Of a DNA stretch of 44,194 nucleotides, positions 5,515 through 41,354 are shown one piece after another (the first letter of the stretch is position 1; each line of letters begins with the position of its first letter). The notes under the pieces are model-generated. The model worked only from the letters and a program-made list of their open reading frames with translations, ran no database searches and had not been told where the DNA came from. The position numbers and the translations under genes are program-made. This DNA is from a virus, in the UHGV virus genome UHGV-0204589, one strand, 5' to 3'.

Positions 5515-5904
5515 GTGGAGCTTACACCAAAGCAGAAAGCGTTTGCTGATTATTATATAGAGTGCGGGAATGCAACGGAGGCGGCGAAGAAAGCTGGGTA
5601 CAAAGAAAAGGCTGCATACGCTACTGGCGCAGAGAACCTCAAAAAACCTCAGATAATCGCATACATCGAGGAACGGCAGAAACAGATAGAAGACAGCCGT
5701 ATTGCCTCTGCCGCGGAAATAATGCAATATTTCACATCTGTCATGCGCGGCGAGATGAAAGACCAATTTGGACTTGATGCTCCGCTGGCGGAAAGAACGA
5801 AAGCTGCTGTAGAACTAGCAAAGCGCAAGGTAGATGTAGCGCAGAATGCAGATACCGGCGGAATTGTTATAGTGAACAACATACCGAGGCCAGGGAAGGA
5901 GTAG
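5515..5904 (+). CDS. terS: terminase small subunit (P27/Terminase_2 family)
   Basis: GTG start; LTPKQKAFADYYIECGNATEAAKKAGYKEKAAYATGAENLKKPQIIAYI is the classic terS N-terminus. Confidence 0.85.
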   Translation: MELTPKQKAFADYYIECGNATEAAKKAGYKEKAAYATGAENLKKPQIIAYIEERQKQIEDSRIASAAEIMQYFTSVMRGEMKDQFGLDAPLAERTKAAVELAKRKVDVAQNADTGGIVIVNNIPRPGKE

Positions 5905-5908
5905 GGAA

Positions 5909-6106
5909 ATGAAAGAATTGAAGAAATGCCCGTTTTGTGGTGGAGAAATTAGCATAATAAAACAAAAGTGTTTAAACACAGGTTTTAAAAGCTATAAATT
6001 ATTTCATGGTTCTGATAGGTATTGTGTTTTGAATGACATAGTGTTCCCTCGGGTGTACGAGCAAAAGGAAACCGCAATAAAATCATGGAACAGACGAATG
6101 CTGTAA
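5909..6106 (+). CDS. Lar-family restriction-alleviation-like zinc-ribbon protein (second paralog)
   Basis: MKELKKCPFCGG...AIKSWNRR. Confidence 0.6.
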   Translation: MKELKKCPFCGGEISIIKQKCLNTGFKSYKLFHGSDRYCVLNDIVFPRVYEQKETAIKSWNRRML

Positions 6107-7344
6107 ATTTAACCGACATCGTAGCCCCTGCCTTTTACTCCGTCCATTGGGACATTCTGGATGGAAATCACACATACTATGACCTGTACGGAGGGCGCGG
6201 CTCTACGAAGTCCTCTTTCATATCAACGGAAATTGTCTTGGGTATGATGCAGGACGCAAAAGACGGAGTTTTCAGCAATGCGGTAGTGTTCCGTAAGGTC
6301 GGCAACACCCTACGGGAATCCGTCTTTGAGCAGATTGCATGGGCGATTGACGCGCTGGGGGCAAATGACCTGTGGGCGTCAAGCGTAAGTCCCATGCAGT
6401 ATGTATATAAGCCTACCGGACAGAAAATCATCTTCCGAGGGCTGGATAAGGCTAAGAAAACGAAGTCCATTAAGACGAGCCGGGGATATTTCAAATACCT
6501 CTGGCTTGAGGAACTTGATGAGTTCGCAGGAATTGAAGAAATCCGAACGGTGCAGCAGTCTGTTCTCCGTGGCGGCAGTAAGTTTGTGGTTTTTAAATCC
6601 TTCAACCCGCCAATCAGCCGGAGCAACTGGGCGAATGTGTACGTCAACGAGCCGAGAGAGAACAGCCTACGGCATAAGAGCACATACAAGGAGGTTGACC
6701 CGGAATGGTTAGGACAGCAGTTTATTGATGACGCTGAGCATCTAAAAGCGACCAATCCGAGAGCCTATGAGCATGAGTATCTCGGGGAGCCTGTCGGACT
6801 TGGAACAAATATCTTTGATATGCTGGAAGTGCGAGAGATTACGGACGAAGAAATAAGTCGAATGGAGCGTATCTATCAAGGCCAAGACTGGGGTTGGTAT
6901 CCCGACCCGAAAGCCTTTATTCGGGCGGCGTATATCCATAATACCGAAACAATCTATCTGCTGGACGAGCTGGGCGGCTGTAAAATCCGCAACAGCAAAA
7001 TGGCAGAGGATATAAAGGAAAAGGGCTATGATGATTATGAAATCCGCTGTGGCGCTGATGAACAGGAAAGCATTGTAGACTTCCGGGACGCTGGACTTCC
7101 GGCCAGACAAGCCAACGTAGGACCAGGAAGCGTCAAATATACCTTTGAATGGCTCCAGTGCCGGACGATTATTATAGACCCCGCCAGAACGCCGAGGGCA
7201 TATAAAGAAATTATAGAGTATGAACACGAAGTAGACAGTAACGGGGAAGTGATTGCGGATTATCCAGACCACAATAACCATTGGATAGATGCTTTGCGAT
7301 ATGCGACAAGCCCGCTGTCGATGAGAAGGGGAAACAGCGCATGA
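6085..7344 (+). CDS. terL: terminase large subunit (PBSX-type)
   Basis: Walker A YGGRGSTKS; C-terminal nuclease-domain acidic residues; 419 aa. Confidence 0.9.
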   Translation: MEQTNAVNLTDIVAPAFYSVHWDILDGNHTYYDLYGGRGSTKSSFISTEIVLGMMQDAKDGVFSNAVVFRKVGNTLRESVFEQIAWAIDALGANDLWASSVSPMQYVYKPTGQKIIFRGLDKAKKTKSIKTSRGYFKYLWLEELDEFAGIEEIRTVQQSVLRGGSKFVVFKSFNPPISRSNWANVYVNEPRENSLRHKSTYKEVDPEWLGQQFIDDAEHLKATNPRAYEHEYLGEPVGLGTNIFDMLEVREITDEEISRMERIYQGQDWGWYPDPKAFIRAAYIHNTETIYLLDELGGCKIRNSKMAEDIKEKGYDDYEIRCGADEQESIVDFRDAGLPARQANVGPGSVKYTFEWLQCRTIIIDPARTPRAYKEIIEYEHEVDSNGEVIADYPDHNNHWIDALRYATSPLSMRRGNSA

Positions 7345-9296: not shown

Positions 9297-12116
9297 ATGT
9301 ATGCTAATAATTTGGATGATGCATTTTCGGCATTTACATTAGGGGAAACAGAAGAGTGGGTAAAAAGTGATAAATACATGGATTATCCAGAATATCAAGA
9401 TGAAGAGTATACCTATATCGAGGGGCGTACAATTGGAGATATTACTGCGCAGATATCAGTGCAGGGAGAATCATACAGCCAGTACATATCTTTTGTGATG
9501 GATAGATATTATGACGGCATTGATTTAACTGGAATGTCTATATGGATACACTATGAATTAAAAGATGGAAGCGGCAGCGAAGATAGCCCAGTGAATGTAG
9601 AGTATAACAATAATGCTATCAGATTTGGGTGGATTATACCGGAAAAGGCAACACAACAGTCAGGAGACATTAAGATTGGTGTATGGGTTAACGGTACAGC
9701 ACCGAATACCAAGCCATATATATTAAAGACAAAAGAAAAGATATATACAATACATCAGGGATTAATCCCAGGGTCTGGCATTACACAGCCAGACCAGAAT
9801 TGGTTTGAGAATTTTGTTGTCCAAATTGATAGTAAGGTATCCACTGCCCAGGGATACGCCAATGATGCCCAGGCCAGTAAGACAGCCGCCGCCGGTTCCG
9901 CCGCCGAATCGGCACAGTCCGCCGCCGAATCGGCACAGGCTCTGGAGGATAACAGGGCATACGTGGAGTCCCAGAAGGAGACCTTCGTGGGCTATAACAA
10001 GCGTGAGACCGACCTCAAGTATGCCAATGCCCTGATTGGCACCGCATCCGGTATGGGCCGGGTTACGGTGGGGGATGCGTGGGAAGCGCCGGTGACTGAC
10101 CTGGAGGTTTCGGGCAGGAGTGAGCAGATGGTGACGACCGGGGCACAGCTACTGGATTGTAGTAAACTAAATAAGAGCGCAGGCGGAGCCGTTGTCAATT
10201 ATGGTGATGGAGGTTACAGCATATCCGGTACAGGAGCATTGACTGCTTCTTTCACAGCATCCTACACCCTGGATATTAAAAATGTCCTTAAACCAGGGAA
10301 TCTCATATTAAAAAGCCAACCGACCATGCCTAAACTGTACATACGTATATGGGATGGCAGTAACGTGTTGGTAGAAATGCAGGGAAACAGCACAAAACAG
10401 ATAACCCAAGACATGATTGACAATGAAAATGTGCGCGTAGAATGCTTTTTTCACGGAAACGCTGGAAGCACCATCACGCCTGGAACATATCATCCCATGC
10501 TGTATCAGTCCGGTGATGGGACCTGGGAACCCTACACCGGAGGCAAGCCATCCCCCAGCCCGGAGTATCCGCAGCCTATCATCAGTACAGGGACGGTTAC
10601 AACGGGAGCGCAGTTGTTTGACGCAAGTAAGATACCCACTAAGTCAGCAGGTGGGGCAACCGTAACCAACAATGGTGATGGGAGCTTTATAGTCGATGGA
10701 AGCGGTAATTTGACTGGAGAGTATTTCTGCCAGTACAACTATTCCAGAGAAGAAACCCTAAAGCTTGTGAAACCGGGAAAATACAGCATGACGTTTTCTT
10801 CGGTATATCCACTAGTAAATTATATAGTACAGGGGACAGGCGTATCCAAAGCGATTAGAAATTCCACTGGTGCCGCAGTTGAAATAACGGAAGCCGATTT
10901 AGCCGTTGAAGATGTAACACTTTCGATTTCTATTTATGGAGGGGCTGGCAGGACAATCACGCCGGGAATTATAAAGCCTATGGTGTGGGCAAAAGAGACA
11001 CTTCCGAGAGATTCAGACTGGGAACCCTACACAGGCGGTAAGCCCAGCCCATCGCCGGATTATCCGCAGACGATGGATGTGACGGTGACGGGGGCGCAGT
11101 TGCTTGATGCCAGTAAAATACCAGATAGAAGCAGTGGGGGAATAACGGTCACTAATACAAGCGCAGGTAGTATTATTAGTGGTGACGGACCTATTACTAC
11201 CAAGTTTGATTTACGAACAATACTAACCCACGAAGAAACTATGGGATTACTCGGAAATGAAAGAACGTTTACGTTATCTTCCGATACAGTTGTCTATCCT
11301 TATTTCTTTTTCGGCTTTTATGATAAAAATGGCGGGGTAATGAATTTACAATTGTCAGGAATGACTCAAGTCACAAAGACACTACCTGATGTGGCAGATA
11401 TTGATACTTTATATGTCCAATATGGGTATTTCGGAGATAAGGATGTATCAATAGTTGCCGGTGAACAGAAAGTAATGTTAAATACCGGGACCACAGCCCT
11501 CCCCTGGCAGCCCTACCAGTCCAGTACCGCAGCCATCACCCTGACGGAGCCGTTACGCGGTATCGGGGATGTACGGGACAGGATAATGTGCAGGGACGGC
11601 GTGTGGGGGATTGAACGGAAGATAGTACCATTAATCCTCAATGGCAGTGAGGCTTGGCATCAGTTTAACACCAGTGGTTCTAAGTCATTTGGTGCAGCAG
11701 ACTTCGATAGTCGGATAAAAATTGATTCCGCTCTCTTATGTGATAGATTAAGCGAGGATGTAACTAATAATGTATGGATTGGGAAACGTGATAATACCAT
11801 TTCCACATCAGGAAGTAGTACAAGATATATAAGGATATTTCTGAATAGCACTGCCACGTTAGATACCCTTAAAGCCTTGTTGTCAGCAGAACCAATGCAT
11901 GTAATAGCAGAGCGAAAGTCACCCGCCTGGGAACCCCTCCCCGCCGACACCCAGTCCGCCCTGTCCGCCCTTACCACCTACACCGGCACCACGCATGTGA
12001 CCATCACGGCAGGAGGGCCGGAACCGGATGTGGGGCTGGGGTACGTGCAGGATACAAACGTTGTGATTGCTGAGTTAAAAAAACTGATAGAAGGAATGCA
12101 GAATGTTAAGTCCTAA
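9297..12116 (+). CDS. large (939 aa) repeat-containing fibre-like/decoration-like structural protein: N-terminal globular domain, Ala/Gln-rich linker, three ~160-aa internal repeats each starting WEPYTGGKPSPSP(E/D)YPQ
   Basis: internal repeats visible in translation and at nucleotide level (10520-10580 vs 11020-11080); located between portal and head-morphogenesis genes. Confidence 0.6.
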   Translation: MYANNLDDAFSAFTLGETEEWVKSDKYMDYPEYQDEEYTYIEGRTIGDITAQISVQGESYSQYISFVMDRYYDGIDLTGMSIWIHYELKDGSGSEDSPVNVEYNNNAIRFGWIIPEKATQQSGDIKIGVWVNGTAPNTKPYILKTKEKIYTIHQGLIPGSGITQPDQNWFENFVVQIDSKVSTAQGYANDAQASKTAAAGSAAESAQSAAESAQALEDNRAYVESQKETFVGYNKRETDLKYANALIGTASGMGRVTVGDAWEAPVTDLEVSGRSEQMVTTGAQLLDCSKLNKSAGGAVVNYGDGGYSISGTGALTASFTASYTLDIKNVLKPGNLILKSQPTMPKLYIRIWDGSNVLVEMQGNSTKQITQDMIDNENVRVECFFHGNAGSTITPGTYHPMLYQSGDGTWEPYTGGKPSPSPEYPQPIISTGTVTTGAQLFDASKIPTKSAGGATVTNNGDGSFIVDGSGNLTGEYFCQYNYSREETLKLVKPGKYSMTFSSVYPLVNYIVQGTGVSKAIRNSTGAAVEITEADLAVEDVTLSISIYGGAGRTITPGIIKPMVWAKETLPRDSDWEPYTGGKPSPSPDYPQTMDVTVTGAQLLDASKIPDRSSGGITVTNTSAGSIISGDGPITTKFDLRTILTHEETMGLLGNERTFTLSSDTVVYPYFFFGFYDKNGGVMNLQLSGMTQVTKTLPDVADIDTLYVQYGYFGDKDVSIVAGEQKVMLNTGTTALPWQPYQSSTAAITLTEPLRGIGDVRDRIMCRDGVWGIERKIVPLILNGSEAWHQFNTSGSKSFGAADFDSRIKIDSALLCDRLSEDVTNNVWIGKRDNTISTSGSSTRYIRIFLNSTATLDTLKALLSAEPMHVIAERKSPAWEPLPADTQSALSALTTYTGTTHVTITAGGPEPDVGLGYVQDTNVVIAELKKLIEGMQNVKS
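9897..9938. repeat. perfect 21-bp tandem repeat TCCGCCGCCGAATCGGCACAG x2 in a GC-rich patch of the 939-aa gene
   Basis: seen in sequence; encodes AESAQS repeat. Confidence 0.9.
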
Positions 12117-13335
12117 TTATCTACAGCATATAGCAGAGGGAAGTGAAGAAATAGCCTCCCAGCTCCATACATATATCATACGACAGATAATAGACCGCAT
12201 GATGATACGTATTGGGCGCGGAGATGATTATTTGCTTACATCCTCTGACAGATGGCGCATCCAGATATTACAGGACGCAGGGTATCTGCTGGAGGATATA
12301 ACAGCAGAGTTATCCAAGTATACCAAGCGGCAGGAAAAAGAGATTAAAGCGGCTATGGAGGATGCCGGGATAAAAGCACTGGAATATGACCATAAGATAT
12401 ACGAGGCCGCCGGCTTGTCCTCTATGCCGCTGACACAATCCCCGGCGCTTATCCGGCTGATGGAACGGAATTATCGGACAACGCTAGGGGAATGGAAAAA
12501 TTACACTAGGACAACGGCGCAATCTGCTCAAAGATTATTTATTAACGAGTGCGATATGGCCTATAACAAAGTTATGAGTGGAGCAACATCTTACACACAA
12601 GCAGTTAAAGAGGCTGTAGAAAATGTGGCCAGTGGGGGTATTACTCTTATTCAATATAGAAGTAAAAATACCGGAGACATAAGAAATGACACGATAGAAA
12701 CAGCTACGGCGCGGGCTGTGCGGACAGGTATATCACAGGCAACAGCACAGATAACATTGAAGCGCATGGAAGAGATGAAATGGGAAGTCGTGCTTGTGTC
12801 TGCACATGTAGGCGCAAGAAATATTGGAGGAATACCAGAGAATCATGAGCTTTGGCAAGGAAAATTTTACAGCCTTCCACAATACGGACATAGGTATCCT
12901 GATTTCTATTATTCTACGGGATATGGGGATATTACTGGATTATGTGGAGTAAATTGCAGGCATAGTTTTGGACCAGGGGATGGAGAGAATAATCCATATG
13001 ACACAATAGAAACAGAAGAAAACCGGAAAGTGTATGAAGCAGAGCAACGACAACGTGCCCTTGAACGCCGCGTCCGCAAGACCAAGCGCGAGGTTATGGG
13101 CATGCAGAAGGCCGTAGAGAAGTGCCAGGACGAGGCGGCAAAGTTTGAGCTACAGCAAGCACTTGACCGGAAGTCCTACCTGCTACAGAAGCAGAATAAG
13201 GCATATAACGATTACTGTAAGGCTAATGACCTGCGGACGCAGGCGGAGCGGCTTGCCGTGGCAAAATGGAGCCGTGAGCAGGCGGCAAAGGCCAGGGGAG
13301 CAGCGCGGCGGTATCAGAATGCGAAAGGGGAATGA
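12103..13335 (+). CDS. head morphogenesis / minor capsid protein, SPP1 gp7 / Mu F-like
   Basis: C-terminal conserved block VLVSAHVGARNIGG...GLCGVNCRHSFGPG; position after portal. Confidence 0.8.
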   Translation: MLSPNYLQHIAEGSEEIASQLHTYIIRQIIDRMMIRIGRGDDYLLTSSDRWRIQILQDAGYLLEDITAELSKYTKRQEKEIKAAMEDAGIKALEYDHKIYEAAGLSSMPLTQSPALIRLMERNYRTTLGEWKNYTRTTAQSAQRLFINECDMAYNKVMSGATSYTQAVKEAVENVASGGITLIQYRSKNTGDIRNDTIETATARAVRTGISQATAQITLKRMEEMKWEVVLVSAHVGARNIGGIPENHELWQGKFYSLPQYGHRYPDFYYSTGYGDITGLCGVNCRHSFGPGDGENNPYDTIETEENRKVYEAEQRQRALERRVRKTKREVMGMQKAVEKCQDEAAKFELQQALDRKSYLLQKQNKAYNDYCKANDLRTQAERLAVAKWSREQAAKARGAARRYQNAKGE

Positions 13336-13868
13336 TTATGGATGAGGTATGGAAAGATATACCCGGTTATGAGGGATTGTACCAGGTGAGTAATTTAGGG
13401 CGAGTTAAAAGCTTTCGAGGGAGTGCAAAATTTGGGAAGCCCGAAGAACTGATTTTAAAACCATCTTTAATTAATTCCGGGTATCATGTTGTAACGCTTT
13501 ATTCCAAGAACCGAGAAAAACATAAATTTCAAGTTCATAGGCTTGTGGCAGAAACTTTTATTGATAATCCCAATAGTTTTCCGTGCGTTAATCACAAGGA
13601 TGAGGATAAATTAAATAACTGTGTTTCAAACCTTGAATGGTGTACATATCAGTACAACAATAATTATGGAACCGCAAGAATACGAGCTGTTGAGAGTACA
13701 ATGAAAGCTATCATGCAAATGACATTAGATGGAATCCATATTGCTACATATCGCTCTGTCACAATAGCTTCTGAATTACTAAAGTATTCTCCGTCAAGTT
13801 TGCGGAAATGGTGTGATTCTGGCATTGGAGGAGGATATAAATGGAGGTACAGCAATGAACCGATTTAA
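13332..13868 (+). CDS. HNH homing endonuclease (NUMOD4 + HNH_3 + C-terminal HTH)
   Basis: IPGYEGLYQVSNLGRVKS (NUMOD4); HVVTLY...HRLVAETF...NHKDEDKLNNCVSNLEW (HNH). Confidence 0.85.
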   Translation: MIMDEVWKDIPGYEGLYQVSNLGRVKSFRGSAKFGKPEELILKPSLINSGYHVVTLYSKNREKHKFQVHRLVAETFIDNPNSFPCVNHKDEDKLNNCVSNLEWCTYQYNNNYGTARIRAVESTMKAIMQMTLDGIHIATYRSVTIASELLKYSPSSLRKWCDSGIGGGYKWRYSNEPI

Positions 13869-17773: not shown

Positions 17774-17798
17774 GGCAGGATTAACTTCCTGCCTTTTT
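17774..17798. terminator. bidirectional rho-independent terminator GGCAGGA-TTAACT-TCCTGCC plus T-run, between convergent genes
   Basis: perfect 7-bp stem, T5 on + strand and A-run upstream. Confidence 0.8.
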
Positions 17799-25290: not shown

Positions 25291-28104
25291 ATGCAAGCTG
25301 ATGGCACAGTACTTATAGACACTACCATTAAAACTGATGGATTTGAAAGTGGTGCAAAAGATTTAGAGCTTGCTATTCGTAGAATGGCTAAATCAATAGA
25401 AGGGCTGGGGGATAAAGCTAAGATTTCATTGCAGAAACAGGTTGATTCTTTTGCTAAATTAAATAATCAATATTCACAGCAGGCCAAAAAAGTTAATGAT
25501 TTAGAAAATAAATTAGAAGAACTTAAGGGAAAGTCAATAGAGACTGACACTTTTAAATCACTTACAAAGGAAATTGATAGCGCTCAAAATAAACTTGATA
25601 CATTTTACGGTAACATTAGAAAGATGGAAAAATCAGGAGTTTCCCCCAGCTCTTCTGGCTACAAAAAAGCTATTGCGCAAATAGATATATATGAACAAAA
25701 GGTAAAATCTTTATATGCTGAGAGGAATGCTCTGGTTTCTTCTGGAAATGCATATACCCCTGTAGATACAACAGCACTGGAAGAAAAATTGATTTTAGAA
25801 AGAACTAAACTCGAAAACATTAACAATCGTTTAAATACATCTTATATGTCACTTAAACAAAAAATGTCAGAGTATGGAGGTAATTTAAGTCTATTATCAA
25901 ATAAAACTGTTAAATCTTCCGCTGAGATTGGAATGCTTCAAAGCTCTTTGAATGGATTGCAAGTTGTACTTAATGGCTTAAAAGCATTACCTTCAATTGT
26001 TGCAACTAATTTAAAAGCACTTCCGTCTAAAACGGTAATTGCTGGAATCAATGGACTAAAAAGCGGATTTTCAAAACTTATATCCGTTATAAAAAAAGTT
26101 GCAAAGGAAGCCCAGAAAGCGGCCTTATCATTTGCCCAGATGGTAGGAAAAGGTATAGTTGGTAAACTCAAAAAGATAAGTGCTGGTATCTTTGGATTAA
26201 ACAAAAATACAAATAGGGCCAGAGGTTCATTTGGGAAAATGCTTACTACATCACTCTTAATGGGAACTGCATTTATGGCATTAAGTTCCATATTGAGAGG
26301 TATGAAAGATGGAATAAATAATCTAGCAAAATATTCAGATGAAACCAATGCCACACTTTCAACATTGAAATCGTCCTTAACACAGTTGAAAAATGCACTG
26401 GCAACAGCGTTTGCCCCTATCTTTAGTGCTGTTGCTCCTGCATTAAATAGCCTTATTAAGCTATTAACATCTGCCGCAACTGCTGTGTCAAGGCTTATTG
26501 CTGCATTAACTGGTAAGAATACATTTGTAAAAGCAAAAGAAGTACAGCAAGACTATGCTGAGAGCTTAGAAGAAACAGGAAATGCGGCAGAAGAAGCAGA
26601 AGGAGCATTGGCATCATTTGATAAATTGAATGTTGCACAGGATAATTCAAACAAGGGTGGCGGCGGAGGTGGTGGAGACTTATCACCCAATGATATGTTT
26701 GAAACCGTAGAAGTCGAACCTTTGAACTTTGATTCCTGGGGTGAGGCTTTCAGTTCGTTTTTGGATTATTTACTTAATAATGGTATTCCTGCTTTAAGAA
26801 ACGCATTAACCGGGTTGGCAAACTGGATAAATACCTTTGCGGCAAATTTGTATGAGATGTTTACCTTCCCAGGAGTGCGTGAAAAAGTACAGTTATTAGG
26901 AACTGAACTTGCAAATGCTTTAAATGATTTCACAAATCAAATTGACTGGGCTATGATTGGAAAGGCTCTTGGTGCCGGCTTTGATTTAGCTGTTCAATTT
27001 TTGGTTAGTTTTATTTGGACATATGATTGGATGAATTTAGGCGCATCACTTGCCGAAATGGTGAATAATGCGCTTGAACAGGTGGACTGGTATTCGTTTG
27101 GAAAACTATTGTGTGCTAAATTCAAGATTATGATAGAAACAGCTGCCGGTTTTTTACTGAATCTTGATATGAAAGAACTTGCAAAGGCAGCGTCTAACAT
27201 TGCAATTGGTTTTTTTGATTCGATAACTGAAACAATTCAAAATATTAACTGGGCAGAATTGGGACAACAATTAATGCGATTTCTTTTAGGAATAGACTGG
27301 ATAGGCATTGCAGGTTCCGTATTTGATGCACTTATGTCAGCGTTTGGGGCAGTTTTCGCTTTTCTTGCAGGTGCTATATGGGAACTCATAAGTACCGCCT
27401 GGGATTCTGTTGTTGAATGGTGGCATGATGTCGCTTTTGAGGACGGAAAATTCACAATAACAGGGTTGCTTGATGGGATTCTTGATGTACTTAAAGGTAT
27501 TGGAAACTGGATAAAAGAACATATATTTCAGCCTTTCATTGATGGTTTCAAAAGTGTATTTGGGATTCATAGTCCATCTAAAGTTATGAGCGAAATGGGC
27601 GAATTTTTAATGGAAGGATTATTAGGTGGAATTACAAGCTTGATTCCGTCTATAGTCGATAAATTCGGTGACTTAAAAGATAAAGTTGTAGAAAAACTCC
27701 AAGGAATTGCAGATAAAATAAAGGAAGTATTGTTTGGATACGATGACCTGGAAAAAGCCGGAAAAACCAAAAGCATAAAAGGAAGTTTTACAAGTAATGT
27801 CCTTTCAGTTATTCCACGCTCAAGTGAAGTATACCTTCCTCGCTTAGCATCGGGAACTGTAGTTCCACCACGGGCTGGAGAGTTTGCTGCAATACTGGGA
27901 GATAACAAGAGAGAAACCGAAGTGGTTTCCCCAATATCAACCATGAAACAGGCATTAAAAGAAGCTCTGGGCGACTTCGGAGGAATAGGTGGCGGAGATA
28001 TCCATCTGACAGTAAACTTGGAAGGAAAGGCTATTTATGACACTGTAGTCAAGAGGAACCGAATGGAAAAGAACAGAACAGGGAGCAATCCACTATTAGC
28101 GTAA
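25291..28104 (+). CDS. tail tape measure protein
   Basis: 937 aa, coiled-coil N-half, TM segments, Gly run. Confidence 0.85.
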   Translation: MQADGTVLIDTTIKTDGFESGAKDLELAIRRMAKSIEGLGDKAKISLQKQVDSFAKLNNQYSQQAKKVNDLENKLEELKGKSIETDTFKSLTKEIDSAQNKLDTFYGNIRKMEKSGVSPSSSGYKKAIAQIDIYEQKVKSLYAERNALVSSGNAYTPVDTTALEEKLILERTKLENINNRLNTSYMSLKQKMSEYGGNLSLLSNKTVKSSAEIGMLQSSLNGLQVVLNGLKALPSIVATNLKALPSKTVIAGINGLKSGFSKLISVIKKVAKEAQKAALSFAQMVGKGIVGKLKKISAGIFGLNKNTNRARGSFGKMLTTSLLMGTAFMALSSILRGMKDGINNLAKYSDETNATLSTLKSSLTQLKNALATAFAPIFSAVAPALNSLIKLLTSAATAVSRLIAALTGKNTFVKAKEVQQDYAESLEETGNAAEEAEGALASFDKLNVAQDNSNKGGGGGGGDLSPNDMFETVEVEPLNFDSWGEAFSSFLDYLLNNGIPALRNALTGLANWINTFAANLYEMFTFPGVREKVQLLGTELANALNDFTNQIDWAMIGKALGAGFDLAVQFLVSFIWTYDWMNLGASLAEMVNNALEQVDWYSFGKLLCAKFKIMIETAAGFLLNLDMKELAKAASNIAIGFFDSITETIQNINWAELGQQLMRFLLGIDWIGIAGSVFDALMSAFGAVFAFLAGAIWELISTAWDSVVEWWHDVAFEDGKFTITGLLDGILDVLKGIGNWIKEHIFQPFIDGFKSVFGIHSPSKVMSEMGEFLMEGLLGGITSLIPSIVDKFGDLKDKVVEKLQGIADKIKEVLFGYDDLEKAGKTKSIKGSFTSNVLSVIPRSSEVYLPRLASGTVVPPRAGEFAAILGDNKRETEVVSPISTMKQALKEALGDFGGIGGGDIHLTVNLEGKAIYDTVVKRNRMEKNRTGSNPLLA

Positions 28105-28544: not shown

Positions 28545-30485
28545 ATGTTAGATGTAGAACAGAAATTCAAGGATTTATATAATTCATATGGTGGGAAAAA
28601 ACTTAAATTAACATTTTATAAAGACGATTACAGAGCATTGTACCCATCAGAGACATTATTCCCATCAGAACAGCTTTATCCGTTAGAAATGGATTCTGAT
28701 GCGATAGAGTTCGTCATTTCCGATGATATGATAAAGTCTGATAGTATGAAGATAACGGAAAGTCTGTGTTCGGATGAAGATTTAAACTTTGGTGCATGTG
28801 AGTGCTCGCAGTTTGAAATTGTGGTGTCCGGGTTATCACGGAATATTGCTGGAAAAGAATTCCTTGTATCTGAAAGTCTTGGGGAATATGAACTTACATT
28901 GGGGCTTTTTACGGTTGATTCCACACCCAAGCAGGAAGATAAGGACACCAGAAAAATCATTGCATATGACCGTATGAAACGCTTTGATGCGGATGTATCG
29001 GGGTGGTATAATCTTTTGTCCTTTCCGATGACATTAAAAGCATTTAGAAATTCTTTGTGTGAGTTTGTTGGAGTAAATGAAGTAGAAAACACGGAATTAA
29101 TAAATGATGATATGGAAGTGGAAAAGACACTTGAACCATCATCACTTAATGGGAGGGATGTATTAAAGTATATATGCCAAATCAACGGCACATTTGGAAA
29201 TATTACTAAAAATGGTGAACTACGATATGTTTCTGTACCAAAGACAGATGATATAAGTATAGAAATTATGGTATATAAGACCGTTGAGAGTGAAGAATAT
29301 AATGTGCCAGATATTGATACGGTAAAAATACAGCAAGAAGAGGGGGATATAGGTGGAACCAGTGAAGGTGATGGAAATAATATCTATATCATTGAAGGGA
29401 ATCCACTTGTATATGGGAAAAATACATCCCAAATGATTGCTATTGCCAATAACATAAAATCTGTGATAAGCGGCATATCTTATTGTCCGGCAGAAATATC
29501 AACAAATGGTTCACCATGGATTGAAGTAGGGGACAGAATTAAGATATTGACTTCGGATGGAACTGTAAATACCATTGTCATGAAGCGAGATTTGACAGGC
29601 ATACAGGGTTCAATGGATGATTTTTCTAGCACAGGAAGTCAAGAACTCGAAAGAAAGTTTAACATAGAAAGCGAAATCATTCAAGTGAAAGGGCTTTCCG
29701 CCATATTAAAGCGCACGGTTGAGGAAGTATCAAATGAATTGACCGATCTTGAACGGGAAACTACATCAAAATTCACACAAACAGCCCAGGAAATTTCGCT
29801 TATGGTGAAAAAGGGAGATGTTACATCACAAATAAACTCCGAATTAAAGGTGACAGGAAATGCCATCGAACTTACAACAGGACATTTTACAATCAATGCT
29901 AAAAATATGACTGTTGATAGTGGTGGAAATGCTACTTTTTCGGGTACTGTGTCCGGTGCGTCAATTGTTGGCGGGAGTATAAATATAGGAAATGGTAATT
30001 TCACTGTTTCTTCTAGCGGAATTGTAGAAGCTAAAAATGCAAAAATTACAGCAGCTACACTTAATTCCACTGGCATTATATATGCTGAAAGAGGAATGGT
30101 TTGTAATGGAGAAATAGAGGCAGACATAGGGTCGATTGAACAGATAAACACCAGGAGCATATATTGTACCGGCATGGTATATGGTGGTGGATGGACAGAA
30201 ATATCAGACAGGAGAGAAAAACGGGATATACAGGACATACCTCCAGATACATGCATTGATGTAATAAAAAGGTTAAAACCTGTCGCTTATACGCTGATTG
30301 ACAATGGAATTAGGGGAACAGGTTTCGTTGCCCAGGACGTCAAGGAAATATCAGATGAAATAAACCTTGATTATCAACTTGTAAGCTACATTTCGGAACG
30401 CAAAAGATATGGTATAGAATACAAAAATTATATTGCGTTTCTGACCGGAGCTGTTCAACACATATTGGAAAGGTTGGGAGAATGA
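28545..30485 (+). CDS. tail fibre / tail-associated protein with C-terminal intramolecular chaperone (peptidase S74) domain
   Basis: C-terminal ...SDRREKRDIQDIPPDTCIDVIKRLKPVAYTLIDNG...GFVAQDV...NYIAFLTGAVQHILERL pattern of auto-cleaving chaperone domain. Confidence 0.75.
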   Translation: MLDVEQKFKDLYNSYGGKKLKLTFYKDDYRALYPSETLFPSEQLYPLEMDSDAIEFVISDDMIKSDSMKITESLCSDEDLNFGACECSQFEIVVSGLSRNIAGKEFLVSESLGEYELTLGLFTVDSTPKQEDKDTRKIIAYDRMKRFDADVSGWYNLLSFPMTLKAFRNSLCEFVGVNEVENTELINDDMEVEKTLEPSSLNGRDVLKYICQINGTFGNITKNGELRYVSVPKTDDISIEIMVYKTVESEEYNVPDIDTVKIQQEEGDIGGTSEGDGNNIYIIEGNPLVYGKNTSQMIAIANNIKSVISGISYCPAEISTNGSPWIEVGDRIKILTSDGTVNTIVMKRDLTGIQGSMDDFSSTGSQELERKFNIESEIIQVKGLSAILKRTVEEVSNELTDLERETTSKFTQTAQEISLMVKKGDVTSQINSELKVTGNAIELTTGHFTINAKNMTVDSGGNATFSGTVSGASIVGGSINIGNGNFTVSSSGIVEAKNAKITAATLNSTGIIYAERGMVCNGEIEADIGSIEQINTRSIYCTGMVYGGGWTEISDRREKRDIQDIPPDTCIDVIKRLKPVAYTLIDNGIRGTGFVAQDVKEISDEINLDYQLVSYISERKRYGIEYKNYIAFLTGAVQHILERLGE

Positions 30486-30664
30486 TGGATAAGATAGTAG
30501 TGTTCAAATATGAGGATGTACGTAAGTTAGCAGACTGCATCAACTCCATACAAGTATCTGGATTTGAAAATGCAAAGCTTATCTCGATTGCGGCCAACAT
30601 CATTGACACTGGCAGAATAAAAAATAAAGATAGCATGGAAGGGGACGGCAATGAGACTGGATAA
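30482..30664 (+). CDS. hypothetical protein
   Basis: 60-aa ORF. Confidence 0.35.
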   Translation: MMDKIVVFKYEDVRKLADCINSIQVSGFENAKLISIAANIIDTGRIKNKDSMEGDGNETG

Positions 30665-31424
30665 CATATTCTATACGATTGTTGGGTGGCTGAACTTCCC
30701 AGACAAATCCACTCCATTAGGAAAGAAAAACCTTCGTCATATGGATAGCGGAATTCTACAATGCGCCCAGCATATTTTATCACTGTCGCAAGATAAGGCA
30801 GAGTTATCCGAAGTGAATACTATGGTGCAGGACGTTACGTTGGATGTAGATACTGGTATTCTTACGGTAAAGTTAAAAAATGGAACGACAAAAACATATG
30901 ATTTAGCCATTGAAAAGGTCGTTGTAAATTTTCATATCACAGATGATAATGAACTTGTACTTGAGCTTGCAGATGGAACAGAAAAGATTATTGACTTAAC
31001 CAGGTTTGCATATTCTGTTGACAGTACAGCAACAATATCCATGAAAATTAGTAACAGAACAATTACGGCGGAGATTGTGGACGGGTCAATTACGTTATCA
31101 AAGTTGGAACAGTCTGTTATGACCACTATCAGGCAGTATATGCTCGATGCGCAAACCGCGGCAACATCTTCGGAACAATATTATATCGCATCAAAAAGCT
31201 GGGCGGTGGGTGGAACATCAAGCCGTGATAACGAAGATAATGACAACAGTAAATGGTATAGCGAAAGGGCAAAAGCAGAAGCTGACCGGGCAGCATCATT
31301 TTCAGAGCTGACATTCCCGGAATTTTACCTTGATATTAGCAATTGGCATCTGATGTGTAAACAAGGTAAGAATGTGACATTTTCGATAAGCCAAAATAAT
31401 CATGTAATTGTAGAGGTGGCATAA
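30651..31424 (+). CDS. tail fibre-associated protein
   Basis: position in fibre gene block. Confidence 0.5.
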   Translation: MRLDNIFYTIVGWLNFPDKSTPLGKKNLRHMDSGILQCAQHILSLSQDKAELSEVNTMVQDVTLDVDTGILTVKLKNGTTKTYDLAIEKVVVNFHITDDNELVLELADGTEKIIDLTRFAYSVDSTATISMKISNRTITAEIVDGSITLSKLEQSVMTTIRQYMLDAQTAATSSEQYYIASKSWAVGGTSSRDNEDNDNSKWYSERAKAEADRAASFSELTFPEFYLDISNWHLMCKQGKNVTFSISQNNHVIVEVA

Positions 31425-32254
31425 TGGCAACAACAGATTTGGGTAAATGGATGATAACAAATGGTGGCGAATATAATCCAGACACCACTTACGAACAACT
31501 TACAATGGTTTTGTACGAAAATAGTACGTACATTACCCTTCGTACAGTTACTGGTATAACGCCAAATAATGATAAGATAAATTACATATTAATGGCACAG
31601 GGATTTAGTGCCAATGCATTAGCAGATGTTGTTGCAAAGGATACTTATGGAGCAATTGGAAATGTAGGTGAGTCTGTATCTGCGCAAAGCCTGATTGATT
31701 ATCTTACAAACGAAGTTGTTAATAATTTGATTAAAAAGACTTCTATTTCAACTGTTCAAGTGAATTCGAATGATATGGTTCCGTCATCCTCTCTGTCCTA
31801 TTCGATGCAGCGCGCGATTGATAACATAAATAGCAATTTCGCGGCCGAAAGATATACTGGAAATATAGATGGCTTGTTTAAAAATTGTGTGGTTCAGTTA
31901 TTCTCTTCCCTTGGCACTACTGGCACTTTCCCAGAATCAGACATTAATGGGTCATTTTTGCATGTTGTTAATAATGGAAGTGACTTCTGCTTTCAGCAAC
32001 TTAACATCATAACCAACAAAAACACAACCTCCTATAAACGTAGTTGGTATTACGGCAATGATACGGTATACCCTGGATGGTCTGATTGGCGAAAGGTTAT
32101 CACAAACTCGGATTTACCAATTCTCACCGTACGCACAGGTACGAGATACTGGACACAATACACCGAGGTTTCGGGGCAAAAGCGGATATATTTTTATAAT
32201 GCCGATTTCCCGTCAGGCAATAACCTGTTAGGGTATATAGCACTTACAAAGTAA
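31424..32254 (+). CDS. tail fibre / receptor-binding protein candidate
   Basis: position; C-terminus RIYFYNADFPSGNNLLGYIALTK abuts inverted fragment. Confidence 0.5.
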   Translation: MATTDLGKWMITNGGEYNPDTTYEQLTMVLYENSTYITLRTVTGITPNNDKINYILMAQGFSANALADVVAKDTYGAIGNVGESVSAQSLIDYLTNEVVNNLIKKTSISTVQVNSNDMVPSSSLSYSMQRAIDNINSNFAAERYTGNIDGLFKNCVVQLFSSLGTTGTFPESDINGSFLHVVNNGSDFCFQQLNIITNKNTTSYKRSWYYGNDTVYPGWSDWRKVITNSDLPILTVRTGTRYWTQYTEVSGQKRIYFYNADFPSGNNLLGYIALTK

Positions 32255-32566
32255 TCATTTAATGTTACGAGACACATCAAATGTAATATAGCCTTTATCA
32301 ACGCCATCTACAAAAAACTGTACATAGTTTTGGGTATCATTCAGTTTGTTGACGTACAAGGATACTGCTTTACCAGCAGATACTCCGGTTGTTTTAACAG
32401 CACTGGTAAAGTCCGCATTTGTAATAACCTTATTGTCATCTACATATGCTGTGCCGTTATCATGGATACCAAGGGTATGTGTCTTTGCCGGGGAGCGTAG
32501 GGATGTCTTATATGTTGATTGTACTATGACATCACCTAAATTGCTATTTACTATATAAAAAACATA
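32255..32566 (-). pseudogene. 103-codon reverse-oriented fibre C-terminal coding fragment with no start codon (YVFYIVNSNLGDV...GYITFDVSRNIK), tail-to-tail with fibre gene; candidate invertible alternative C-terminus
   Basis: long open frame on minus strand without ATG/GTG/TTG near its 5' end; bounded upstream by TAA; + strand ORF 32346-32558 lacks RBS. Confidence 0.5.
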
Positions 32567-32595
32567 TTAAAAAACATATCCATGAAAGGAGTAAG

Positions 32596-33009
32596 ATGAA
32601 TCAATTAAAACTATCAAACAACACAAAATACGACTTAATAACAAACGGGGTGGAAGAATCCGGCGATTACCTAACCCTGTCGTTTCTTCCCGGCCTGGAC
32701 AGCTTTGAGATGGTAGAATCTGAATTTAATCCGACAAATGCAGAGAAAATTTACATACTTGGTTTGGATGGTCAGCCGATTGAAGTAAAAACCGGATTTA
32801 CTCAGCTGGTGGAGATGCGCAAGAAAATGGATTATGTCATATCTTCTGAAACAGTAAATACCGGCACCGAGGAAGAACCGAATTATGAAACCAAGGAAGT
32901 GAAAGATACCGTTATGGTAGTTAAACTTCGTAGGCCAGATATCCGGGATACAGTACAGACATTGCAAGATACAGTGGATGCAATAATTTTAAGTCAGTTG
33001 GAGGTGTAA
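32596..33009 (+). CDS. hypothetical protein
   Basis: RBS AAAGGAG. Confidence 0.5.
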   Translation: MNQLKLSNNTKYDLITNGVEESGDYLTLSFLPGLDSFEMVESEFNPTNAEKIYILGLDGQPIEVKTGFTQLVEMRKKMDYVISSETVNTGTEEEPNYETKEVKDTVMVVKLRRPDIRDTVQTLQDTVDAIILSQLEV

Positions 33010-33010
33010 A

Positions 33011-33136
33011 ATGTATACAACATTAAAAAGGCTATATAACAATGGTAAAGGGCCATTAACGCTTTCCGAACTCAACCGGGCTGTGTCAATTGGATGGATT
33101 ACAGAGCAGCAGAAAAACAGCATAATTGGAGGATGA
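33011..33136 (+). CDS. XkdX-like small phage protein (41 aa)
   Basis: MYTTLKRLYNNGKGPLTLSELNRAVSIGWITEQQKNSIIGG resembles XkdX family. Confidence 0.5.
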   Translation: MYTTLKRLYNNGKGPLTLSELNRAVSIGWITEQQKNSIIGG

Positions 33137-33138
33137 TT

Positions 33139-33879
33139 ATGAGAGATATCACATTGTGCCATCCACGTTTACAGCTTTTAGCAGGTCAATTGGTGGACGA
33201 ATGCAATAAACAGGGATTAAAAATTAAAATAGGTGAGACACTGCGGACCGTGGCAGAACAGGATGCTTTATACGCTCAGGGTAGGACTAAACCGGGTAAC
33301 ATTGTAACTAATGCTCCTGGCAGCAGCTACAGCTCCTATCATCAGTGGGGAACGGCTTTTGATATATTCCGCAATGATGGCGCTGGAGCCTATAACGAAA
33401 TAGGCGGCTTCTTTAACCGTGTAGGTGCTATTGGCGTATCTATCGGCCTTGAATGGGGAGGAAACTGGAAGTCTCCTGTGGACAAGCCACATTTTCAACT
33501 TCCTGATTGGGGCAGCTCTACCAGCGGTATAAAAAAATTGTACCACAATCCAGAACAATTTATGAAAACCTGGACTGAGCAGGAGCGCACTGGTTGGATT
33601 AAAGATAACAATGGCTGGTGGTATCGTAGGACGGATGGAACATACCCGGCTAATAAGTGGTGTGTAATAAATCACCATTGGTATCTGTTTAATAAGGACG
33701 GATATGCTTGCACCAGCTGGCACCGGTGGAATGGAAGCGTATGTGACCCGGATGATGGTTCGGGAGATTGGTATTACTTTGACCCCACACCAAACGGTCC
33801 GTTGGAGGGTGCGTGCTGGCATAGTCAAGATAATGGGGCGCAGAATGTCTGGTATATTGAGGGTGCTAATTCAATATAA
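33139..33879 (+). CDS. endolysin: M15-family (VanY-like) peptidase domain plus C-terminal cell-wall-binding repeats
   Basis: RBS GGAGGA before ATG 33139; YHQWGTAFDI (H-x-x-G-x-A-x-D); GWWYRRTDGTY...WYLFNKDGY...WYYFD repeats. Confidence 0.85.
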   Translation: MRDITLCHPRLQLLAGQLVDECNKQGLKIKIGETLRTVAEQDALYAQGRTKPGNIVTNAPGSSYSSYHQWGTAFDIFRNDGAGAYNEIGGFFNRVGAIGVSIGLEWGGNWKSPVDKPHFQLPDWGSSTSGIKKLYHNPEQFMKTWTEQERTGWIKDNNGWWYRRTDGTYPANKWCVINHHWYLFNKDGYACTSWHRWNGSVCDPDDGSGDWYYFDPTPNGPLEGACWHSQDNGAQNVWYIEGANSI

Positions 33880-33931
33880 AAGCGCCAGAACTTGACTCTG
33901 ACGCTTCTATAAATAAAGTACCATCTTCGGA

Positions 33932-34153
33932 AATATGCAACACGAAATGCAACACGGAGCCTACAAACCGCATAAAACCGTTGTATTTTACGGGTCCGAT
34001 TCCCGTCAGCAGCTTTTTCTTAAAACCTTGTAGATACGTAGAAAACAACGTATTTGCAAGGTTTTTTCATGTTTTTGAATAGCACTTCCTCCGTCTGTCA
34101 CGTAGGAAGTTATTATAATATTTAGGATATATGCAACACGATGCAACACGGAA
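33932..34153. promoter_or_regulatory. putative attP region: paired direct repeats ATGCAACACG(A)AATGCAACACGGA at 33932-33960 and 34127-34153 flanking a tRNA 3'-end-like segment (ACGGG-TCCGATT-CCCGT + CAGCAGC, 33990-34013)
   Basis: seen in sequence; immediately adjacent to integrase 3' end. Confidence 0.35.
34022..34067. terminator. bidirectional terminator hairpin (AAAACCTTG...CAAGGTTTT plus T6) between endolysin and integrase
   Basis: seen in sequence. Confidence 0.6.
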
Positions 34154-34167
34154 AATATGCTATTCTA

Positions 34168-35256
34168 TCACATGATGAACTTTTCAAAGTGTTTATTGAT
34201 TTTTTTATTCTGCCGGACAGATTCCAGGTCAATTACATTTCTGTAGACAGCTTTCATAATATTGTCACTGGCCCATCCCCCACGCTGCAAAATATATTGG
34301 TCCGGTATGCCTATGGCGTGCATAATGGATGCAGCATAATGCCGTAGGTCGTGAAATCGAAAATGTGGCACATCAATCTTTTTAAGCACCCGTCCAAATC
34401 TATGTGTGATATAATCTGGATTCATGTCAACCAGTTTCCCCCTTTTGCTGGATATCCGTTCAATTACAAATGCCGGCATTTCTACATCCCGTGTGCTGTC
34501 ATCCGTCTTTGGCTGTTTGATATACCATTGATTGTCTGGTCCCTTGACCATATTGTCTCTTACATGGATAATATGACCATCTACGTTTTTATCAGTAAGG
34601 GCGCTTATCTCTCCTCGCCGGAGCGGGCCAAACGCAGCCAGTAAAACGGCTATCTCCAAATCTGTACCTTTGATAGCGTCTAACAGCTTTTTGATATCAT
34701 TGTCATTGGGGCAGTATAAATCTGGGCGTTTTTTCTGAGGAAGCTTTACTTTTAAGGTTAAATCCGGCGCAAACATTTCCAATGATGCGGATAACAGGCC
34801 ATAGGCATTTCTAACTGTCTTGGGAGACAGTTGTTTTGAAGCCAAATCACTTACCCATATCTGTACAGATGGATTAGTTAGCTCTGAAAGCCGTTTACGC
34901 CCAAATACGCCGTCAAAATACTGTCTTTGCATACCAACATACCCTCTAAGCGTAGAAGGGCTTAAAACGCCTTTTTTGACGTTTAAATAACGTTCGATAG
35001 CTTGACTCACTGTTATATCTTCGTCCTCTTCCTCTTCCGGTACGTTGTATTGCTCTATGGGCTTGCCCTTCATATCTAATTTCCATCTAGCAGCCATTTC
35101 TTGTGCGATTTTACGTGATGGAGCAACAAAACTTTTGTAATGCCGTTTACCTTTTTCATCCGTATATAAGTATAATTGTACACGGATATTTTTGGATGGC
35201 AGTTCTCCTTTTTTCTTTTTCGGGGCTTTCTTTGTCATTTCTCTTTCCTCCTTCAA
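34168..35256 (-). CDS. int: tyrosine integrase (phage integrase family)
   Basis: HDLRHYAASIMHAIGIPDQYILQRGGWASDNIMKAVYRNV; R...H-x-x-R...Y catalytic pattern; AP2-like N-terminal arm-binding domain. Confidence 0.9.
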   Translation of the reverse strand: MKEEREMTKKAPKKKKGELPSKNIRVQLYLYTDEKGKRHYKSFVAPSRKIAQEMAARWKLDMKGKPIEQYNVPEEEEDEDITVSQAIERYLNVKKGVLSPSTLRGYVGMQRQYFDGVFGRKRLSELTNPSVQIWVSDLASKQLSPKTVRNAYGLLSASLEMFAPDLTLKVKLPQKKRPDLYCPNDNDIKKLLDAIKGTDLEIAVLLAAFGPLRRGEISALTDKNVDGHIIHVRDNMVKGPDNQWYIKQPKTDDSTRDVEMPAFVIERISSKRGKLVDMNPDYITHRFGRVLKKIDVPHFRFHDLRHYAASIMHAIGIPDQYILQRGGWASDNIMKAVYRNVIDLESVRQNKKINKHFEKFIM

Positions 35257-41231: not shown

Positions 41232-41330
41232 TTAAAACTTTTGGGAATAAAAAAGAGCCTTGCGGCCCTGCGTTCCCTGTTATTTAATTTGATTATAGCA
41301 ATTTTTTGGGAATTATACAATAGCAATATT
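41232..41330. repeat. copy 2 of dispersed promoter-like intergenic element (no insertion)
   Basis: matches 1692-1731 + 1790-1848. Confidence 0.8.
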
Positions 41331-41354
41331 TAAGATTTTGAAAGGATAAAGCAC

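Follow-up and report, generated by a model that had tools for sequence, protein, structure and literature searches.

In several well-known phages, inversion of a DNA segment swaps the C-terminus of a tail fibre and thereby switches host range. In the Mu G segment (Gin), the P1 C segment (Cin), e14 (Pin) and p15B (Min, a multi-site system) a serine invertase is encoded beside the segment, the 26-bp sites sit in repeats of 34 bp, there is a Fis-dependent enhancer, and the segment contains a second gene, U/U'. The shufflon of R64 and other IncI plasmids relies instead on a tyrosine recombinase, Rci, with short asymmetric sites in the frame of PilV and convergent alternative C-termini; R64 has four segments and seven sfx sites (19 bp), with rci adjacent. 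Here we describe a locus of this general kind in the virus genome UHGV-0204589 (44,194 nucleotides (nt), "the window" below), which reads as the complete genome of a temperate siphovirus of gut Lachnospiraceae. The segment 31828-32549 holds the 3' 426 nt of a tail-fibre gene and, tail to tail with it, the whole of a silent alternative fibre end, and we consider it very probable that this is an invertible fibre-tip segment, flipped between two 12-bp cores that we call J1. The kind of switch is known from Mu G, P1 C, Min and Rin, whereas the Lachnospiraceae system and its core are a new variant.

As in Mu G and P1 C, the constant 5' part of the fibre gene lies outside the segment and the alternative, convergent 3' ends lie inside it, and in-frame inverted repeats are present at both segment ends, as throughout the Mu G/P1 C/Min/Rin class. 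Unlike the Gin, Cin, Pin and Min systems, this locus has no serine recombinase, a core of 12 bp and no chaperone gene within the segment. Sites of the 26-bp Gin/Cin type are likewise missing, the sequence shared here amounting to 10-12 bp only (no comparison with the gix/hix consensus was made). R64 differs in that it encodes a plasmid pilus adhesin rather than a phage fibre, and its 19-bp sfx site is unrelated to the J1 core. The closest described case is the second inversion locus of the Bifidobacterium prophages 689b-1 and Bb423phi2 (both integrated at tRNA-Met), where about 500 bp are inverted between related prophages (Mavrich et al. 2018, PMC6109161). That segment comprises the 3' end of a tail-region gene and a small convergent gene, with an 8-bp crossover (CAGGGTTA); no recombinase flanks it, and an invertase acting in trans was proposed (PMC6109161). 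The two loci are alike in their short core, convergent ends and lack of a flanking recombinase, but they differ in host phylum, their proteins are unrelated, and the core is 12 bp (AAATAGCAATTT) here as against 8 bp there; moreover, the Bifidobacterium inversion was noted from one genome pair, whereas the present system spans dozens of loci and several fibre backbones and has a second module boundary as well.

The Rin shufflon of Bifidobacterium and Eggerthella prophages combines a constant N-terminus of the receptor-binding protein with alternative C-terminal segments (PMC6109161, PMC8778435). Each variable segment starts with an 11-bp asymmetric rix site, and a tyrosine-family enzyme is predicted to act on it (PMC6109161, PMC8778435). 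A constant N-terminus, a short asymmetric site before each variable end and Gram-positive gut hosts are common to Rin and the present locus. Rin, however, has several tandem Rv segments and a flanking rin invertase gene, whereas the present locus consists of a single segment whose two ends converge and is not adjoined by a recombinase gene; the J1 core is also unrelated in sequence to that of Rin. Two of the four features tested for Rci/Rin-type tyrosine shufflons (the constant N-terminus and the short asymmetric in-frame site) are thus found here, while a dedicated flanking invertase of that type is not. A genome-wide study of programmed inversions reported phage tail and tail-fibre proteins as enriched targets (Milman et al. 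2023, PMC9881135). As far as the passages of that study that we consulted go, its class shares with our locus the inverted repeats, the size asymmetry between gene and pseudogene and the convergent partial copies; the tail-fibre loci they treat are of the Mu-like/COG5301 type in prophages, and they contain no description of this Lachnospiraceae family, of its core or of segment sharing between backbones. Nor did the literature that was searched yield a description of this Lachnospiraceae system, of its core, or of identical segments behind unrelated fibre genes.

The elements of the locus, in window coordinates, are as follows.
31424-32254, plus strand: fibre gene, 276 amino acids (aa), from the list of open reading frames (ORFs); it lies 3' of the tape measure, Dit-like and Peptidase_S74 tail genes
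31424-31827, plus strand: residues 1-135 of the fibre, its constant N-terminal part, which the invertible segment does not include
31828-32549: invertible segment, 722 bp with both cores, 720 bp between the 11-mers
31828-31839, plus strand: J1 core, expressed copy, AAATAGCAATTT; extended imperfect arm 31818-31839
31840-32092, plus strand: module M1, a knob-like domain, expressed now
32093-32115, plus strand: J2, the second module boundary, expressed copy, AAGGTTATCACAAACTCGGATTT = K-V-I-T-N-S-D-(L)
32116-32254, plus strand: module C1 (46 aa) with the TAA stop
32255-32549, minus strand: silent ("OFF") cassette, consisting of N-S-N-L (32548-32537), M2, J2', C2 and the TGA stop (32257-32255)
32409-32431, minus strand: J2', silent copy, AAGGTTATTACAAATGCGGACTT = K-V-I-T-N-A-D-(F)
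32538-32549, minus strand: J1' core, silent copy, the reverse complement of AAATAGCAATTT; extended arm 32538-32559
32550-32595: outer flank of the silent site, a spacer with the ribosome-binding site of the downstream gene
32596-33009, plus strand: conserved downstream gene, 137 aa, phrog_12931, the fixed right neighbour of the invertible segment

The fibre ORF, which had been noted in a preliminary description of this DNA, was confirmed at 276 aa, and in its current "ON" configuration it reads constant part, J1, M1, J2, C1. Its first ~135 aa are 86-96% identical across 351 homologues, while the C-termini beyond them are unrelated and of dozens of kinds. The homologues always switch at ..NSN(L/F), with N136, S137 and N138 invariant (alignment A2), and those with names come from Enterocloster citroniae and E. 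bolteae. The alternative modules are distal fibre ends, unrelated to one another in sequence; some of the alternative heads carry H_lectin domains, consistent with receptor binding. The fibre N-terminus gave weak PHROG tail-fibre matches, and searches of Pfam, PHROG and NCBIfam with the fibre and with the minus-strand fragment returned nothing informative. Annotated phage records held no DNA or protein match to the region, and the GTDB representative genomes neither a fibre relative nor a copy of the C2 DNA. An AlphaFold model of the fibre, built from a mosaic alignment of 29 sequences, was unusable (predicted local distance difference test score 36.7).

Beyond the fibre gene, an open frame of 103 codons runs along the minus strand (32258-32566) and reads YVFYIVNSNLGDVIVQ...FDVSRNIK, with no ATG, GTG or TTG start that would yield at least 40 aa; the ORF list and the translation thus bear out the earlier observation of a startless frame lying tail to tail with the fibre. 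The silent cassette within it has no start codon or ribosome-binding site and begins at the core, and its stop (TCA on the plus strand, 32255-32257) directly abuts the fibre TAA (32252-32254). M2-C2 is silent because it lacks a start codon and runs antisense within the late operon. No terminator-like site was found inside the invertible segment, and promoter-like matches there numbered 13, against 7.8 +/- 2.6 in shuffles. The same architecture, in which a reverse cassette, startless and opening with the core, lies tail to tail behind a fibre gene, was found in at least four different fibre backbones, the gap between the two stop codons being 0-10 nt in 23 of 24 segment types. Database relatives of the fragment are "proteins" of 77-181 aa with unrelated junk N-termini, homologous from NSNL onward, and they are assembled as mosaics whose joints are fixed at NSN(L/F) and ..ITNxD(F/L).

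One may also consider that the fragment is read from the minus strand via a non-canonical start, either as a small gene in its own right or as one that has decayed, and gene callers did assign starts to the homologues P0001 to P0022. These starts are spurious, however, giving unrelated N-termini of 5-30 aa, and we give this explanation next to no chance: neither a start nor a ribosome-binding site is conserved, backbones differ in the sequence upstream, where a stop in frame often lies 1-5 codons ahead of NSNL, the frame runs antisense to the late operon, and its sequence is that of the C-terminus of full-length fibres. Relatives in which the fragment belongs to a longer decayed gene with its own start were looked for and not found; the silent copy starts at the core. 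The preliminary description had also allowed for the cassette being a fossil. That is unlikely because the substitution pattern indicates that C2 is under purifying selection: between the window and locus L001 it shows 18 synonymous and 3 non-synonymous differences (pS 0.51, pN 0.025, the synonymous and non-synonymous proportions). A scan of JGI metagenomes for C2 DNA returned one short contig only. An interim conclusion from a first word-index search, that C2 is never expressed, was overturned by loci L009 and L111 and by an exhaustive HMMER search (proteins P0143, P0144 and P0181).

The exact 12-mer AAATAGCAATTT occurs only twice in the 44-kb window, the two copies being inverted relative to each other, and the repeat finder places them in an inverted repeat (31818-31839 / 32538-32559) of 22 nt and 82% identity around the exact 12-nt core. 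Both copies share the codon phase AAT-AGC-AAT-TTx, which reads N-S-N-F in the fibre and N-S-N-L in the fragment. At 41 distinct J1 sites in relatives the change of neighbour always falls at ATAGCAATTT, and the same inner module adjoins different constant parts and silent flanks. Every module, whether ON or OFF, is preceded by the core ATAGCAATTT(A); on the outer side of the core the sequence is weakly conserved and on the inner side it varies freely. Distant phages have variant cores (AATAGTRATTTA), and these co-vary between the two copies, for example AATAGTGATTTA twice in L020 and AATAGTAATTTA twice in L022. Elsewhere in the window there are J1-like matches with one mismatch at 2179 and 17941, and the 10-mer recurs at 1813 and 41295 within a promoter-like repeat; all were judged coincidental. 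In L012, L014, L016, L125, L126 and L146 the silent copy of the core, ~45 nt 5' of the downstream gene, is shortened to TAT-ATAGCAATTT (Y-S-N-L), without the leading AA, and such cores may be weakened or locked sites.

The preliminary description had proposed that inversion takes place between two other strings, both AT-rich: ATATATTTTTATAAT at 32186-32200 (I-Y-F-Y-N) and the reverse complement of 32551-32567 (..Y-V-F-Y-I), so that the last 18 residues of the fibre would give way to a 96-residue end including Y-V-F-Y-I-V-N-S-N-L. The strings do exist at these places and in this phase, and a match of such quality arises by chance in about 4% (3.8%) of 831-nt windows, but as a crossover the pair is extremely improbable. 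It has one mismatch and one indel over ~14 nt, so there is no identical overlap, and the 14-mer at an edit distance of up to 2 has two plus-strand matches in 44 kb, which is borderline chance. Not one of the 41 junctions in relatives lies there, all being at ATAGCAATTT. The left arm is ordinary coding sequence inside C1 that is absent from most relatives with the same architecture, the right arm falls within a 12-nt duplication specific to the window and absent from L005, which has the same cassette, and the complete fibre P0181 joins its constant part directly to NSNL. The geometry of a reverse silent fibre C-terminus in a Mu G/shufflon-like arrangement was therefore correctly recognized, as shown by relatives in both orientations and by the fusion in P0181, but the crossover was misplaced: in the fibre the real core is found 358 nt upstream of the proposed left arm, at the other end it lies 2 nt inward of the right arm, and the exchange is of 141 aa for 97 aa at N-S-N-(F/L). 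As to the duplication itself, the spacer at 32556-32579 consists of a perfect tandem repeat of TAAAAAACATAT (two copies, repeat finder), for which relatives have a single copy (...CATGGGTATGTTTTTATATAGC followed by AAATAGC...); the in-frame TAA that bounds the 103-codon frame is a product of this duplication, which also supplies most of the right arm.

Using the downstream gene 32596-33009 as bait, we fetched 34 loci from IMG/VR. Within 2.5 kb upstream of that gene 28 of them have both J1 copies, four have one and two have none. Alignment of loci from relatives indicates that both orientations of J1-bounded segments occur between related phages. L121 and L124, whose 1000-nt flanks are 99.9% and 99.8% identical, have a 484-bp segment that aligns at 95.9% identity when one copy is reverse-complemented and at 52.7% when both are read directly. 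L011 has a module B switched ON and a module A silent, and L030-L034 have A ON and B silent; here the 486-bp segment matches at 486 of 486 positions in reverse complement (294/528 in direct alignment), with flanks 93-98% identical in direct orientation. L111 has the segment of L103/L104 inverted (99.6-99.8% in reverse complement), its flank aligning directly. Several modules in the IMG/VR loci are ON in some phages and OFF in others, among them PYIDTSKK.., SNKNIIG.. and the A/B pair of L115/L116.

The window's own 720-bp segment is identical at 719 of 720 positions in L010 and at 702 of 720 in L005. The fibre side of L010 is unrelated (112/206 over the 200 nt before the core) and its downstream flank ~80% identical, while both flanks of L005 are unrelated to the window, so that homology with either starts and stops at the cores. 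An exhaustive HMMER search for complete fibres ending in the window's cassette found P0181, which has an N-terminus of the L010 type (88 of 89 residues identical to P0024) followed by 97 of 97 aa of the cassette, from NSNL onward. The window's cassette is thus expressed elsewhere, in the configuration predicted by J1 inversion.

Several other arrangements were seen among the relatives. Across 24 distinct segments (loci L001-L145) the same module has different partners, only J1 being common and the stops abutting; module A, for instance, is paired by locus with B, VSKLGTG.., AKTNAK.. or VFANGVG.., and many modules end in ..K-stop. In P0149 (216 aa) the silent module VFANGVGT.. is joined at an internal G-N-S/N-L to M2' and a head domain, a joint that looks like recombination at a pseudo-core (..GGAAATAGCA..) within the module. 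L100 (1-1130), L102 (1-1200) and L112 (1-945) carry a convergent pair, M-C2 and a ..NTDAQF module, with one J1 core next to a tRNA-Met gene and the other next to the end of a RinA-like regulator gene. Over their short length these contigs show no fibre constant region; either the genome is laid out differently here, or the locus holds two silent cassettes. In L009 (1-1608) J1 joins M3-C2 to another fibre constant region, distinct from the first and encoded on the reverse strand, so that two complete fibre genes converge; this is either a real arrangement or the C2-ON state of a co-sampled phage joined by the assembler through the shared segment. An additional gene of 115 aa lies between the silent cassette and the downstream gene in L015 (7071-7415) and L143, one sub-lineage.

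Conservative site-specific recombination between the two J1 cores would flip the segment of the window and fuse the constant part in frame to M2-C2, giving a fibre of 232 aa in which the last 141 residues are replaced by 97, while M1-C1 would become the silent copy. The junctions expected after such a flip are ..GATAACATAAATAGCAATTTAGGTGATGTC.. and ..TATATAGTAAATAGCAATTTCGCGGCCGAA... This last tail gene encodes a fibre in which exchangeable distal modules are attached to a constant N-terminal anchor of 135 aa, and the new distal end would presumably have a different receptor specificity. That the reaction still runs in this phage and changes its host range is what we infer from the arrangement.

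Several points weigh against an active J1 switch. Both orientations were seen between phages only, each assembly representing one consensus orientation; there is no perfectly isogenic pair of isomers, the best pair having 4% divergence within the segment, and some of the "inversions" could be replacements of a cassette in opposite orientation. All three DNA copies of the window's segment (window, L010, L005) have the same orientation, M1-C1 ON, and the M2-C2 ON state is known only as proteins (P0181, P0143), a search of IMG/VR for DNA of that state having found none. By a base-composition estimate, a gene of 831 nt and a fragment of 310 nt would share an exact inverted repeat of 12 bp by chance with a probability of roughly 1-5%. 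The 12-nt duplication of the window lies 6 nt from the core and could impair the site. The neighbours of the J1 locus are a tail gene and lysis genes, with no adjacent recombinase, and at least five near-complete relatives with intact J1 pairs lack, at the syntenic place upstream of terS, the Xer-like recombinase gene that the window carries.

An alternative is that the cassette was made by site-specific recombination but is locked or a relic here, for want of a cognate recombinase or because a site is damaged, so that diversity would come only from an occasional exchange of whole segments between co-infecting phages. The shared orientation in the window, L010 and L005 would fit this, as would the absence of a linked invertase together with the dispensability of the Xer-like gene in relatives, the truncated silent cores (TAT-ATAGCAATTT, "YSNL") of L012, L014 and L016, the duplication beside the window's silent core, and the skew of module AKTNAK.., which is ON in ~11 of ~13 loci. 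We nonetheless hold it to be unlikely, since neither core is damaged and the two are identical, the frame is unbroken and subject to purifying selection, P0181 has the identical cassette in the ON state, and near-isogenic relatives differ by inversion.

J2 is probably a further exchange point for modules. The J2/J2' pair is an inverted repeat of 23 nt and 83% identity, the best-scoring one between gene and fragment (3 of 200 codon shuffles reach its score), and it is the only BLASTP similarity between fibre and fragment. Mosaic junctions fall at J2 in many relatives: M1 is joined to C1 in the window, L010, L005 and L107, to C2 in P0007 and to an H-lectin-type head in the silent copy of L120; C1 also sits behind M2 (P0011, L006, L108); M2 is joined to C1, C2, C3, C4, C5 and H-lectin-type heads; and C2 stands behind at least nine different knobs. 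P0143 (M2-C2) and P0147 (M2-C3) are identical over 135 residues, through KVITNAD, and then completely different. L103 has M2-C3 ON and M4-C2 OFF, the pair that a J2 x J2' inversion would interconvert, and nine of the 18 differences between the window and L005 segments cluster at 32407-32443, that is, at J2'.

One extension of the J1 switch would be that J2 also serves as a crossover site, nested within it, to give the four states M1-C1, M1-C2, M2-C1 and M2-C2, as in a small shufflon; the M1-C2 junction expected from J2 inversion would read ..AAGGTTATCACAAA..GGACTTTACCAGTGC... The joining of M1-type and M2 modules each to both C1 and C2 favours it, along with the P0143/P0147 divergence, the L103 arrangement, the score of the repeat and the cluster of differences at J2', but we put it forward with hesitation. 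J2 has no invariant DNA core and varies at synonymous positions; the window copies share runs of at most 8 nt (AAGGTTAT), then of 5 and 4 nt, so that the long identical overlap that tyrosine recombinases need is missing; and no DNA-level pair of isomers was found that differs only between the J2 sites. The mosaicism could stem from homologous or illegitimate exchange that occurs rarely, at a linker conserved between the domains. With one segment per locus, J2 could bring the number of alleles to four, judging from protein-level comparisons.

As to the enzyme, none of the 38 window ORFs scanned has a Resolvase-type domain, in agreement with the earlier remark that no serine invertase is nearby; a tblastn search with a Hin query gave no better than E = 0.035 over 37 aa, in an ORF without a Pfam match, which is not credible. 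Two tyrosine recombinases are present, an integrase 1.6 kb from the segment, with its own att site, and the Xer-like protein 27 kb away. Because serine recombinases are absent and these two are present, catalysis by a tyrosine recombinase acting in trans appears most likely. The Xer-like protein (3368-4414, plus strand, 348 aa) has a SAM-like core-binding and a catalytic domain (Pfam Phage_integrase, 7.8e-29, and SAM_4), no N-terminal Pfam domain besides the SAM-like one, NCBIfam XerA/XerD/XerC-like matches below the cut-off, and weak matches to models of tyrosine-type DNA invertases; copies 88-100% identical occur in many relatives, including both L115 and L116. As a universal invertase it was rejected, since co-occurrence fails in at least five near-complete relatives. 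It is still the best local candidate, in cis or in trans, with a chance that we would put not far short of even, and we see a comparable chance for an invertase supplied by the host or by a co-resident prophage. The integrase (34168-35256, minus strand) was set aside, because its att crossover is unlike the J1 core: homology between the window and integrated relatives ends at ~34015 (...GATTCCCGTCAGCAGCT), with no resemblance to the core. That it is the invertase is thus very doubtful.

The J1 cores also act as portable boundaries, identical segments being found behind unrelated fibre genes; the backbones with J1 are of 276 aa, of 181-230 aa, of 410 aa (BppU_N-type) and of ~1024 aa. We suggest, tentatively and with more doubt than confidence, that J1 is a portable site common to at least four unrelated Lachnospiraceae fibre backbones, and that a recombinase encoded off-locus, and not in every carrier, flips segments in situ and also moves them between co-resident phages. 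This would amount to an inter-genome shufflon driven in trans, with a community-wide pool of fibre tips whose combinations are multiplied by the second in-frame boundary, K-V-I-T-N-x-D.

The remaining genes of the window are given below in window order, early genes coming first.
3368-4414, plus strand: Xer-like tyrosine recombinase, after the early genes
5515-5904 and 6085-7344: small and large terminase, followed by the head genes
25291-28104: tape measure
28545-30485: Peptidase_S74 protein, one of the distal tail genes
30651-31424: 257-aa protein, directly before the fibre gene
33094-33879: VanY/M15 endolysin, preceded by an XkdX-like gene
34168-35256, minus strand: phage integrase (Pfam and PHROG); an S24 repressor is also on the opposite strand

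The endolysin adjoins the integrase, so the window represents the circular or excised form of the phage. In the attP region (33880-34170) similarity to the integrated relatives L023 and L031 stops at ~34015, and ATATGCAACACGA(A)ATGCAACACGGA occurs twice, at ~33932-33958 and ~34128-34152, on either side of that point; both copies may be integrase sites of the arm type. The structural block contains two HNH-type endonuclease genes, at 13332-13868 (plus strand, NUMOD4 and HNH_3) and 17781-18812 (minus strand, PHROG 374 HNH), and both are likely homing endonucleases. Phage genes for tRNA-Ile(TAT) (19478-19553) and tRNA-Gln(TTG) (19701-19789) are situated just 5' of the scaffold and capsid genes. 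The 939-aa ORF 9297-12116, without a Pfam match, contains a 57-nt direct repeat (77%; 10523-10579 / 11018-11074) that encodes a repeated P-rich motif. Ahead of early genes (1692-1855 / 41232-41337) are direct repeats (40 nt at 100%, 79 nt at 91%) that resemble a duplicated terminator/promoter unit (TTGATT..TATACAAT); they contain the 10-mer ATAGCAATTT, with ATAGCAATAT 26 nt beyond, which was judged coincidental.

The human gut is rich in temperate phages of Enterocloster and other Lachnospiraceae, which are almost uncultured. For these phages the locus provides a sequence rule by which alternative fibre tips can be found, namely an inverted pair of AAATAGCAATTT, one copy in a fibre gene and the other ~45 nt 5' of the next gene, and this rule explains many "hypothetical" metagenome ORFs of 80-180 aa as silent cassettes. 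The rule also cautions that any one assembly displays a single fibre allele out of two or more. The 12-bp core is also a defined substrate for finding the trans-acting invertase. If segments do move between unrelated fibre genes via the core, this would be a mechanism for rapid modular evolution of host range, and such mobility could be useful for engineering phages against gut anaerobes.

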